From: Tagaea sp.
Lineage (GTDB): Bacteria > Pseudomonadota > Alphaproteobacteria > CACIAM-22H2
DNA: 64,000 nt
Direction: 5' to 3'
NCBI GenBank assembly: GCA_965279525.1
Contig: CBDIIB010000004.1
Location: forward strand, 960,001-1,024,000
The position numbers and the translations under genes are program-made. Position 1 is the stretch's first letter. Every line of letters starts with the position of its first letter. Of this stretch, positions 55,650 through 57,725 are shown piece after piece. The notes beneath the pieces were generated by a model, which saw nothing but the letters and a program-made list of their open reading frames with translations, was not told where the DNA came from and searched no databases.

Positions 55650-55728
55650 TCGGGGCGCAAGAACCGGGTGGGTTCGCGCCCGCCGCCACGCCATGTTCGC
55701 CTCATCGTCCATCCACGAGGAGTCGAAC

Positions 55729-56196
55729 ATGGATTTCCGCATCCGGGGACTTTCGCCCGAACCTTTCGCACCGCTCTACGGCCTAGCCGACGCCGAACTG
55801 GCCGCGCGCGGAATCGTGCGCCATGTCGCGGATTCCTGCCCCGGCTTTCCCGACCGCGTGGAACTGCGCGATGCCGAGCCCGGCGAAAGCCTGCTGCTGC
55901 TGAATTACGAGCACCAGCCGGCCAACTCGCCCTACCGCTCGTCGCACGCGATCTTCGTGCGCGAGGGGGCCACGCGGGCGTTCGACCGGGTCAACGAGAT
56001 CCCGCCCGTCATGCGCCCGCGCCTGCTGTCGCTGCGCGCCTTCGACAAGCACGGCATGATCGTCGACGCCGACCTTGCCGACGGCAAGACGGTCGAACCG
56101 GTCATCGAGCGGCTGCTCGCCGACGGCCGCGTCGAATATCTCCACGCCCACTACGCCAAGTTCGGCTGCTTCTCGGCGCGCATCGAGCGGGCATGA
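55729..56196 (+). CDS. DUF1203 domain protein
   Basis: GFPDRVELRDAEPGE.LLLLNYEHQP..SPY....AIFV, YLHAHYAKFGCF. Confidence 0.85.
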   Translation: MDFRIRGLSPEPFAPLYGLADAELAARGIVRHVADSCPGFPDRVELRDAEPGESLLLLNYEHQPANSPYRSSHAIFVREGATRAFDRVNEIPPVMRPRLLSLRAFDKHGMIVDADLADGKTVEPVIERLLADGRVEYLHAHYAKFGCFSARIERA

Positions 56197-56221
56197 CGGG
56201 AAAATATGTGGGTTTCTATTC

Positions 56222-56279
56222 TTGACAACCGGAACGAGTTCTTGTAATTCAGCACACGGTTGCGGCGTGCTGTTTGACA
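56222..56279 (+). promoter_or_regulatory. Sigma70-like promoter followed by hairpin and boxA-like motif, no downstream + strand gene
   Basis: TTGACA-N17-TAATTC, CAGCAC/GTGCTG hairpin, TGCTGTTTGACA (cf. boxA TGCTCTTTAACA). Confidence 0.5.
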
Positions 56280-56542
56280 GTGTGAATATGGATGCCCGGC
56301 AACGTCCCTGAAGGTACGAAGCGGGCGCTTGGCCTGATGAGTATCGCCGCAAAAATCGCGAGACAGATGCGTGTTACGTCGCATGTCTCCTGGCTTTTGG
56401 GCGATTTCAAATGGTTGGACAGGAGACGGTAACATCCCGTCTCCTCCCGTCACGCAAAGTCTGCTGCCGCAAAGTTTGGTTGACGGGATTTTATTTCCGT
56501 CGCCCGTCAACCGGCTATCGTGCGTTTCCAAGACGTTAGGCA

Positions 56543-56597
56543 GTTGACGGTCAACGCCCGTCAACACGCCGTCAACGCCCGTCAACACGCCGTCAAC
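56543..56597. repeat. Phased GTCAAC repeat array abutting prfB stop
   Basis: GTCAAC at 56550, 56560, 56571, 56581, 56592 (10/11/10/11 spacing; 21-bp unit x2) plus inverted GTTGAC at 56543. Confidence 0.9.
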
Positions 56598-57725
56598 TAG
56601 GCCAGATCCTCGACCTTGCTCGTCCCGCCTTTGAGACGCGAGGCGAGCGAGGCTTCGAGGAAGCGGTCGATGTCGCCGTCGAGCACGCCCTTGGTGTCCG
56701 ACGTTTCGGCACCCGTGCGCAGATCCTTGATCATCTGGTAGGGCTGCAGCACGTAGGAGCGGATCTGGTGTCCCCAGCCGATCTCGCTCTTGGCTTCGTG
56801 CGTGGCAAGGGCCGCGGCCTCGCGCTTGCGCAGTTCGGCCTCGTACATGCGCGCGCGCAGCATCTTCCAAGCGCGGTCGCGGTTCTTGTGCTGCGAGCGT
56901 TCGGTCTGGCACGCGACGACCGTGTTGGTCGGCACGTGCGTCAGGCGCACGGCGGACTCGGTCTTGTTGACGTGCTGGCCGCCCGCCCCCGACGCGCGAT
57001 AGACGTCGACGCGCACGTCCTCTTCCTTGATGTCGATCTGGATGTCGTCCTCGATGTCGGGATAGACCCAGGCCGACGCGAAGCTCGTCTGCCGGCGCGC
57101 GTTGGAATCGAACGGCGAGATGCGCACGAGCCGGTGCACGCCCGTCTCGGTCTTGAGCCAGCCATAGGCGTTCTCGCCGGCAATGCGGATCGTCGCCGAC
57201 TTGATGCCCGCCTCGTCGCCGGGGCTCTCTTCCTGGTACTCGGTCTTGAAGCCGCGCTTCTCCGCCCAGCGCATGTACATGCGCGCGAGCATCTCGGCCC
57301 AATCCTGCGCCTCGGTGCCGCCGGCACCGGCGTTGATCTGCAGGAACGCGTCGTTGGCGTCGGCCTCGCCCGAGAGCAGCGCTTCGAGCCCGCGCTTCTC
57401 GGCTTCGGCCTTCAGGTCCACCAGCTGCTTCTCGGCATCGGCGAGCACGGCTGCGTCGTTCTCGGCCTCAGCCAGTTCGATCATGCCGATCGAATCGTCG
57501 AGCTTGGCGGTCATGTCCTTGACCGCGGCGATGGCGGTCTCGAGCTGCTTGCGTTCGCGCAGCAGGGCCTGCGCCTTCTTCGCGTCATTCCACAGCGACG
57601 GGTCTTCGGAAAGCGTGTTGAGCTCTTCCAGCCGCCTCAGAGCGCGGTCCCAGTCAAAGAAACCTCCTCAGCAGCACCAGCGACTGCTTGATTTCTTCGG
57701 CAACGGCGGCGATTTCGGCGCGCAT
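56597..57725 (-). CDS. prfB: Peptide chain release factor 2 (programmed +1 frameshift)
   Basis: MRAEI...LRRFL CTT TGA C then DWD...; SPF tripeptide, GAGGQHVN. Confidence 0.97.
57653..57668 (-). promoter_or_regulatory. RF2 +1 frameshift cassette
   Basis: AGGAGG-TTT-CTT-TGA-C on minus strand. Confidence 0.95.

Follow-up and report, generated by a model that had tools for sequence, protein, structure and literature searches.

Antitermination by boxA and the Nus factors is known at rRNA (rrn) operons, in lambdoid phages, at suhB and at some CRISPR arrays, a handful of sites per genome; at rrn operons, boxA is bound by NusB/NusE with NusA, NusG and SuhB. Dispersed repeats are known in several architectures, among them the IHF-binding RIB/RIP-type repetitive extragenic palindromes (REPs) and bacterial interspersed mosaic elements (BIMEs) of E. 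coli, and the BOX elements of Streptococcus pneumoniae and ERIC, which are modular, ordered mosaics with variable internal modules and are thought to be transcribed and folded. The known non-rRNA uses of boxA (suhB, CRISPR arrays) protect or regulate specific transcripts (PMC5725501, PMC13753749); Neisseria's Correia repeat (CREE, for Correia repeat enclosed element) is a short intergenic repeat with inverted-repeat ends and an IHF-type site that can supply a promoter and RNA hairpins (PMC2649163); and CGTC-tagged REPs are reported mainly from Alphaproteobacteria, without a dedicated transposase (PMC3733652). Here we analyze a 64,000-nt stretch of Tagaea sp. DNA (contig CBDIIB010000004.1, positions 960,001 to 1,024,000; “the window”) and an element in it that carries a promoter-like module, a boxA and several hairpins within the 400-bp intergenic gap (56197-56596) between a DUF1203 protein gene and prfB, the gene for release factor 2. 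A literature search for boxA antitermination together with “miniature inverted-repeat” gave no paper joining the two among the matches listed, and a search on the genus name found no paper on repeats.

Judged from its sequence, the gap is one full copy of a genus-restricted composite dispersed repeat, composed of a promoter, a boxA and one or two copies of a hairpin module that we term BC. A preliminary description of this DNA had presented it as an orphan element; the genome in fact holds 27 non-rrn boxA sites, together with 37 places occupied by BC. When the gap was compared to its own genome by BLAST, 45 matches were obtained that group into modules, and iterated nhmmer resolved these into two families, A and BC, with the provisional modules “B” and “C” proving to be one family. 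Family A spans ~81 nt and is present in 12 full copies, which read ATTTTCTTGACAA, 17 nt, a -10 box of the form cA...T, ~20 variable nt, and cGTGCTCTTTGACAAGTGAATATG, the boxA. TTGACA is exact in nine of the 12 copies, and the -10 box has A at position 2 and T at position 6 in 11 of them, the exception being the window copy.

The boxA call of the preliminary description is borne out by comparison within the genome: the family consensus cGTGCTCTTTGACAAGTGAATATG matches the boxA sequences of both the genome's own rrn leader and its 16S-23S spacer. The sole assembled 16S gene lies at C5:1864411, with a leader boxA of GCTCTTTGAAAAGTGAATA at C5:1864185, 226 nt upstream, and the spacer boxA reads GCTGTTTGACATGGTGAAGA. 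The dispersed copies share with these both the rrn core and a GTGAA(T)A extension. A boxA-core profile identified ~30 sites at E <= 2, all of them outside GC3-filtered open reading frame (ORF) calls; three belong to rrn and the other 27 do not. PMC5725501 gives a gamma-proteobacterial consensus of GYTCTTTAANA, from which the core here differs once, by G for A at position 8.

We asked how often a promoter-like sequence precedes boxA by matching TTGACA-N16-18-TATAAT in the 80 nt upstream of each site and in 2000 control windows. A match of at least 8/12 was found at 21 of the 27 non-rrn sites, compared to 3.6% of controls, and a match of at least 9/12 at 12 of the 27, compared to 0.4%. At least three unrelated promoter sequences stand before the same boxA: the A type, a second type that we term P2 (TTGTAT-N17-TAKAGT), and a third, AT-rich type. 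In P2-type units a hairpin lies directly 5' of boxA in ~18 of 22 sequences, two or three of the 22 being unrelated loci caught by the regular expression, and its stem shows compensatory variants (CGGCCG/CGGCCG, TGGCCG/CGGCCA, GGATCG/CGGTCC and CGGTCGT/ACGACCG). The A-type copy of the window has no such conserved hairpin; a conserved 5' hairpin is confined to the P2 type.

BC is coupled to this promoter-boxA arrangement in a fixed orientation. A covariance model of BC built from 18 copies (R1) gave 40 matches in the genome at E <= 0.01, corresponding to the 37 distinct places, and a same-strand BC match at this threshold lies -15 to +113 nt downstream of 21 of the 27 non-rrn boxA sites. Two further boxA sites were matched to BC in another scan, and by eye most of the others show a GTAACC-type BC. 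Counted from the BC side, a boxA lies <= 400 nt upstream of 25 of the 37 places and is lacking at the other 12. Promoter, boxA and BC recur together at ~27 places per genome, using no fewer than three types of promoter, so the combination looks selected; the joining of these parts in one genus-specific repeat suggests that a repeat family has spread the boxA signal to ~27 places in the genome.

On balance, we lean toward viewing the unit as a transcribed, Nus-protected mosaic repeat of the MITE (miniature inverted-repeat transposable element), BIME or Correia kind, to which a boxA has been added. We infer that the promoter fires, that boxA loads the Nus factors, and that transcription escapes Rho and reaches the convergent gene. 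RNA polymerase would start at the unit's own A/T-flanked, sigma70-type promoter, and the nascent boxA, ~12 nt past the putative start, would recruit NusB/NusE and the remaining Nus complex as at rrn operons. An untranslated hairpin RNA would then be made without Rho-dependent termination, with transcription heading for the 3' end of the gene that converges on the unit, prfB in this case, and perhaps entering it. Within the genus, the unit as a whole has been gained or lost as a single block over time. Two other candidate readings of unit parts were rejected: a small conserved ORF after boxA, as the ATG in GTGAATATG leads into unrelated short frames in different copies, and a sigma54 promoter at the right end motif, where the spacing was judged unsuitable by eye.

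The BC module is ~110 nt long and quasi-palindromic, with a left end motif GCCGCAAAGTTT, a variable left hairpin, a linker of the form TCAA-N4-(T/A)T(G/A), and a right hairpin of 8-9 bp with a conserved loop, GGT(C)AACnn, and a stem made of a variable CGTnnnC word. One to four extra direct copies of the stem word follow the right hairpin, and in a subset of BC copies the ends read GCCGCAAAGTTT...AAACTTTGCGGC, a candidate pair of terminal inverted repeats. The word may be CGTCAAC, CGTCTCC, CGTAACC or CGTCGCC, and both arms change together between copies. In the alignment of the right hairpin, 90.7% of cells are paired and four of the nine pairs are changed on both sides, and 0 of 500 shuffles matched these levels of pairing or covariation. 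As paralogues in a few subfamilies, the copies represent few independent events. Across 81 loci, which gave 79 distinct copies, the aligned pairs number 575 Watson-Crick, 36 G-U and 3 A-C, an excess of G-U over A-C that favors pairing on the boxA-sense strand. A consistent structure for the left hairpin was rejected: RNAalifold recovered the right hairpin only, and folds vary from copy to copy. The left arm begins with a word that some copies have inverted and others direct.

In the window, the unit fills the gap from end to end (Table 1). The stop codon of the DUF1203 gene abuts its left end, and the last word of its second BC module finishes at the first nucleotide of the prfB stop codon (56597-56599), with prfB running convergent on the unit. 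As the preliminary description stated, no plus-strand gene follows the element, the next gene being prfB on the minus strand. The motifs that it listed are all present in the sequence at the places it gave, and its remark that the gap is less GC-rich agrees with a GC content of 0.55-0.56 in the BC modules against 0.659 for the contig. The hairpins GAGACAGATGCG/CGCATGTCTC and GCCCG/CGGGC also occur in the gap. What it missed is that CCGTCAAC/GTTGACGG occurs seven times within 56478-56597.

Table 1. Features of the composite unit in the window and of the two genes that flank it.
Feature	Position	Strand	Remarks
A-type promoter-boxA module	56197..56290	+	family similarity from ~56209; 12 full copies in genome
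-35 box TTGACA	56222-56227	+	17-nt spacer to -10
-10 box TAATTC	56245-56250	+	
Hairpin CAGCAC/GTGCTG	56250-56255 / 56267-56272	+	overlaps -10/start region and boxA
boxA GCTGTTTGACA	56269-56279 (boxA-like TGCTGTTTGACA at 56268-56279)	+	
boxA extension GTGAATA	56282-56288	+	
Spacer with GCCCGG/CGGGC hairpin	56291..56343	+	lineage-specific
BC module 1 (GTCTCC word)	56344..56455	+	R1 covariance-model match, 93.7 bits
BC module 1, long left hairpin	56346-56403	+	
BC module 1, linker TTTCAAATGGTTGG	56405-56418	+	
BC module 1, right hairpin AGGAGACGG [TAACATC] CCGTCTCCT	56421-56429 / 56437-56445	+	
BC module 2 (GTCAAC word)	56464..56597	+	R1 covariance-model match, 95.5 bits
BC module 2, end motif GCCGCAAAGTTT	56466-56477	+	
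BC module 2, left hairpin GGTTGACGGG/CCCGTCAACC	56478-56487 / 56503-56512	+	
BC module 2, linker TCCAAGACGTTAG	56527-56539	+	
BC module 2, right hairpin GTTGACGG [TCAACGC] CCGTCAAC	56543-56565	+	more CCGTCAAC words up to 56597
DUF1203 protein gene (167 aa)	55693..56196	+	ORF; Pfam PF06718, E = 1.2e-34
prfB (release factor 2, C-terminal reading frame)	56597..57514	-	Pfam PCRF and RF-1

Two parts of the window unit stand apart from the family. The hairpin CAGCAC/GTGCTG, which the preliminary description had put in the position of a boxB, is left out of the functional parts: it overlaps both the -10/start region and boxA, and it is not conserved in the other 11 A-type copies. The spacer between the A module and BC module 1, a 54-nt stretch, finds only itself in the genome, and it is absent from the orthologous units of four relatives (genomes G017, G011, G019 and G013) and present only in the window genome, G000. 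It may be a decayed copy of a hairpin module, CCATGCCGGCAGGTCGAGGCCGG, that is found after boxA elsewhere. This hairpin follows boxA at G000 C5:75142, C5:1142331, C2:231251 and C3:492895 and at G019 L256, and is a candidate for a boxC-like element or one that acts in processing. The word array of BC module 2 is lengthened by a 21-nt sequence, GTCAACGCCCGTCAACACGCC, of which two exact copies stand in tandem at 56550-56591, and the number of direct words varies from three to five among orthologues, which suggests slippage.

The gap itself is well supported. Independent public metagenome contigs reproduce it, and one record covers 55966-56675 with 0 differences, so the gap is not an assembly artefact. 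Compared to shuffled sequences, it folds with z = -4.6 on the plus strand and z = -5.9 on the minus strand, and on neither strand was any of 100 shuffles as stable. The gap is palindromic DNA, and folding by itself cannot name a strand. A tRNA/tmRNA search found no tRNA or tmRNA in the gap, and a terminator scan found no terminator-like site on either of its strands. Rfam, searched in e-value mode with the window region and the 37 unit loci, gave only chance miRNA matches far below the gathering score, with the rrn locus detected as a control. The preliminary description's view of the hairpin region as non-coding stands, with no Rfam family matched. Beyond the unit, the prfB frame as called has 305 aa within a 356-aa open frame (window 56597-57514, upstream to ~57690), the N-terminal part presumably being reached by the usual programmed +1 frameshift.

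We next consider where the units lie. None of the 74 ORFs that flank the 37 clusters is a transposase or integrase; they are housekeeping and metabolic genes unrelated to one another, and a common downstream gene family was rejected on this ground. A search of G000 (97% complete) for a RAYT (REP-associated tyrosine transposase) gene gave 0 matches to PF01797, a control search with which was positive in six of 14 known genomes. In a search for an autonomous parent element, the end motif gave 24 matches compared to 19 for the reversed control, none of them flanking a gene. The units show a marked orientation: of the 25 loci where Pfam supports the downstream ORF, 22 have the unit converging on that gene (binomial p = 1.6e-4). 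Including the 12 clusters without Pfam support, the count is 27 of 37, and the distance to the convergent stop codon is often 0-30 nt; the seven co-directional ORFs without such support share no mutual similarity and mostly look like wrong frames. This bias indicates that the unit has a functional polarity, which would fit an active promoter, with either read-in being selected against or convergent transcription itself being used. A repeat of the GGGAGAGGGTTAGGGTGAGGG / CCCTCTCCC type, unrelated to the unit, often lies just upstream of promoter modules (L180 in G019, L179 in G012, and C5:1053604 and C5:168676 in G000).

The family is confined to one genus. R1 matches BC in 14 of 20 other genomes of the genus, with 1-42 copies each; the family/order sample also held 29 genomes that represent 14 other genera, and none of these gave a match. 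A boxA pattern gave 19 matches in G019, 24 in G011 and 26 in G007, with 0 in the reversed control; it gave 0 in three genus genomes that lack BC and in one other genus, whose own rrn boxA sites also fail the pattern, so that a diverged variant could have been missed there. In a scan of the collection for promoter, gap and boxA together, multiple copies per record occurred only in records of one Rhodospirillales-like genus or close labels, and the pattern gave single matches elsewhere. Among the latter is one match per S. oralis genome (L028, L044, L067, L068, L076, L091 and L092), which may be an rRNA or other boxA-bearing leader.

Orthologous loci show that most copies are old and syntenic, to judge by sequence comparison across the genus. 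Orthologues of prfB are present in 19 of the 20 genus genomes, and the DUF1203 gene and prfB are neighbors in nine genomes. In eight of these nine, a promoter-boxA-BC unit faces or abuts the prfB stop codon, of the A type in G000, G019, G017, G011 and G013 and of the P2 type in G007, G014 and G010; 11 more distant members of the genus have other neighbors and no unit downstream of prfB. Across the five A-type orthologues, the -35 box, boxA with GTGAATA, the BC end motif, the linker and the right hairpin are invariant, while the stretch from -10 to boxA varies; BC module 1 is complete in three of these species and partial in two. The flanks of some of these loci carry other DNA: the G017 gap (L181) has a CGTC-tagged REP, CGTC-AT-GCCCGGGC...GCCCGGGC-AT-CCA, upstream of the A module, and in L182 (G011) and L186 (G010) the DUF1203 gene and the unit are separated by an additional ~0.8-0.9 kb, AT-rich in part. 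In the window itself, GGGCATGACGG at the DUF1203 stop codon (56188-56198) resembles half of a CGTC-tagged REP.

Other loci show the same combination of conservation and turnover. At hemN, boxA is 0.85-0.96 identical to that of five relatives, as against 0.70-0.79 for third codon positions and 0.48-0.68 for the upstream 120 nt, and one BC module is missing in G012, G019, G017 and G011. The hemB unit is likewise syntenic, and of the 18 non-rrn boxA sites of G019, 15 have a G000 boxA at the syntenic locus. At a kdsA-like locus, G019 and G013 carry a whole unit of ~330 bp that G000, G012 and G011 lack. It sits exactly between two stop-codon regions, its composite ends are CGGCGTT/AATGCCG only, and it has a 9-nt flanking direct repeat in G019 and not in G013. 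This whole-unit presence or absence means that the composite can be inserted or deleted as one block. The preliminary description's alternative of a mobile-element relic comes close to what is there. It had also set a match to a REP-type repeat against its proposed Nus-protected RNA; a repeat was found, and yet such an RNA is not refuted by this, because the unit couples promoter, boxA and hairpins in one orientation.

A number of observations weigh against a Nus-protected transcript, some of them particular to the window copy. Its boxA and extension read GCTGTTTGACA(G)TGTGAATA, with a 1-nt insertion before GTGAATA, and its -10 box is weakened, lacking the final T present in 11 of the 12 A-type copies. 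The preliminary description's promoter-like module upstream of boxA is there, but a sigma70 promoter scan of the gap did not call TTGACA-N17-TAATTC, because TAATTC lacks that final T. Given both changes, this copy may be weakened. In G012, the closest relative, whose prfB protein is 99.7% identical to that of the window, promoter and boxA are gone from the locus, and of BC only the last ~50 nt survive; a different repeat, of the GGGAGAGGGTTAGGGTGAGGG / CCCTCTCCC type, stands in place of most of the unit. This loss shows the prfB copy to be dispensable in the short term and not essential. As to strand, the gap folds equally well on both, the P2 5' hairpin shows no significant difference in energy between the strands (p = 0.22), and 24 of the 36 G-U pairs fall at a single loop-closing position and are partly inherited within subfamilies, leaving 12 G-U to 3 A-C when that position is removed. 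The BC left hairpin is inconsistent across copies, with per-copy folds that vary, and the conservation of orthologues could come partly from gene conversion among copies. Public runs that contain the window are metagenome DNA contigs only; public RNA runs share 0.05-0.15 of window words, with conserved genes probably the source.

Several of these points could be read at the level of DNA. BC would then be protein-binding or structural DNA of a REP/BIME/RIP-like element, with an IHF-like site between palindromes and phased words as binding sites. At the 3' ends of genes it would serve in supercoiling, in organising the nucleoid or as a roadblock, with promoter and boxA incidental or carried along. 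The linker pattern TCAANNNNWTR occurs in 52 of the 79 distinct BC copies, and WATCAANNNNTTR, the strict IHF consensus, in 10 of 79. The GTCAAC words of the window are phased at 10, 11, 10 and 11 nt, and this phasing, together with the IHF-like linker, fits a DNA-binding role as well. The equal folding of both strands, the variable orientation of the first left-arm word and the inconsistent left hairpin point the same way, as do the 12 BC places without a nearby boxA and the position of units at gene 3' ends, as reported for REPs (PMC3733652). Left unexplained, however, are the three promoter types and the rrn-identical boxA facing BC (21 of 21 coupled sites being same-strand), the standing of boxA as the best-conserved part of the orthologues, and the excess of G-U over A-C; moreover, the word sequences vary, so that no single protein would read all of them. 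We regard a purely DNA-level element as unlikely. A selfish or decaying MITE-like repeat, functionless in this copy and tolerated where its promoter does little harm, is a better candidate, though less likely than not. Restriction to one genus at 1-42 copies per genome agrees with it, as do the block presence or absence at the kdsA-like locus, the BC module gained or lost at hemN between G000 and G012/G019, the loss at prfB in G012, and the degraded -10 box and lineage-specific spacer of the window copy; the orientation bias is also what purifying selection against downstream promoter read-in would be expected to produce. Such a repeat fits poorly with the lack of a transposase, integrase or RAYT beside any of the 37 loci or in the genome, of an autonomous element with the same ends, and of a clear target-site duplication at the kdsA-like locus, and with the synteny of 15 of 18 sites between G019 and G000 and the footprint-like conservation in orthologues.

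The position of the window copy also raises a dedicated function at prfB, along the lines of the antisense reading into prfB that the preliminary description thought possible, in which a Nus-protected cis-antisense transcript through the gene would set the level of release factor 2. The unit reaches the prfB stop codon, neither strand of the gap has a terminator-like site, and a unit is kept in eight of nine syntenic species despite differing promoter types (five A, three P2). According to PMC13753749, Rho can interfere with non-coding RNA synthesis, and boxA would shield an antisense RNA from Rho. Nothing in the architecture is specific to prfB, however, as it faces at least 22 unrelated genes, including hemB, hemN, fliG, dcd, a penicillin-binding protein gene and malate synthase; G012 lacks promoter and boxA here, and downstream of prfB the unit is missing from the 11 more distant members of the genus. 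We consider a prfB-specific regulator very unlikely. The Nus-protected repeat that we favor also has a far-reaching form, in which a single alphaproteobacterial genus would have transferred the rRNA antitermination signal to a repeat family, and ~25 self-promoted, Rho-resistant non-coding units per genome fire into the 3' ends of housekeeping genes (among them prfB, hemB, hemN, dcd and fliG); we hold this to be doubtful. If true, it would amount to a genome-wide layer of Nus-dependent convergent/antisense transcription, the largest non-rRNA Nus regulon yet seen.

If the unit is indeed a Nus-protected repeat, antitermination signals could be spread by repeats, and these genomes would offer a natural setting in which to ask what Rho-resistant transcription, non-coding or antisense, does at the 3' ends of genes. 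Such a repeat would also account for a group of intergenic regions that look “empty” in these Rhodospirillales-like genomes from fresh water and wastewater. Natural controls are at hand, since relatives differ by unit loss at prfB and by whole-unit presence or absence at the kdsA-like locus.

By their defining features, the element is neither a REP/RAYT system nor a member of any Rfam family, and it resembles each of several known systems in part. Like BOX and ERIC, it is an ordered mosaic of modules, with internal modules that vary in number; its sequence is related to neither, and the “boxA” of BOX is only a module name and not a Nus signal. With REPs and BIMEs it shares palindromic mosaic repeats downstream of genes, between convergent or unidirectional genes, and true CGTC-type REPs adjoin some units in relatives (G017). 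Unlike REPs as defined in PMC3733652, which bear an unpaired GTAG or CGTC tag, BC measures ~110 nt and not 20-40 nt, and its CGT lies inside the stem. BC furthermore has no CCA tail, occurs at ~37 places and not in hundreds of copies, has no RAYT that we found, and is coupled to a promoter and a boxA. The Correia repeat offers the parallel of a short intergenic repeat with inverted-repeat ends, an internal IHF-type site, the capacity to supply a promoter, and RNA-level hairpins, the ends, IHF-type site and promoter being putative in our family. Its sequence is unrelated, and in our family the promoter is a separate upstream module, there is a boxA, stems differ from copy to copy as words, a TA target duplication was not seen, and the distribution is limited to one alphaproteobacterial genus. 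The closest likeness in signal is to the rrn antitermination site: boxA and its 3' extension are the same as in the genome's own rrn leader and spacer, boxA stands shortly downstream of a putative promoter and before a predicted untranslated structured RNA, and P2-type copies have a hairpin just 5' of boxA. What sets the unit apart from the boxA sites of rrn, suhB and CRISPR arrays is that its boxA belongs to a dispersed repeat, present in ~27 copies before ~110-nt palindromic modules and mostly facing a convergent gene.

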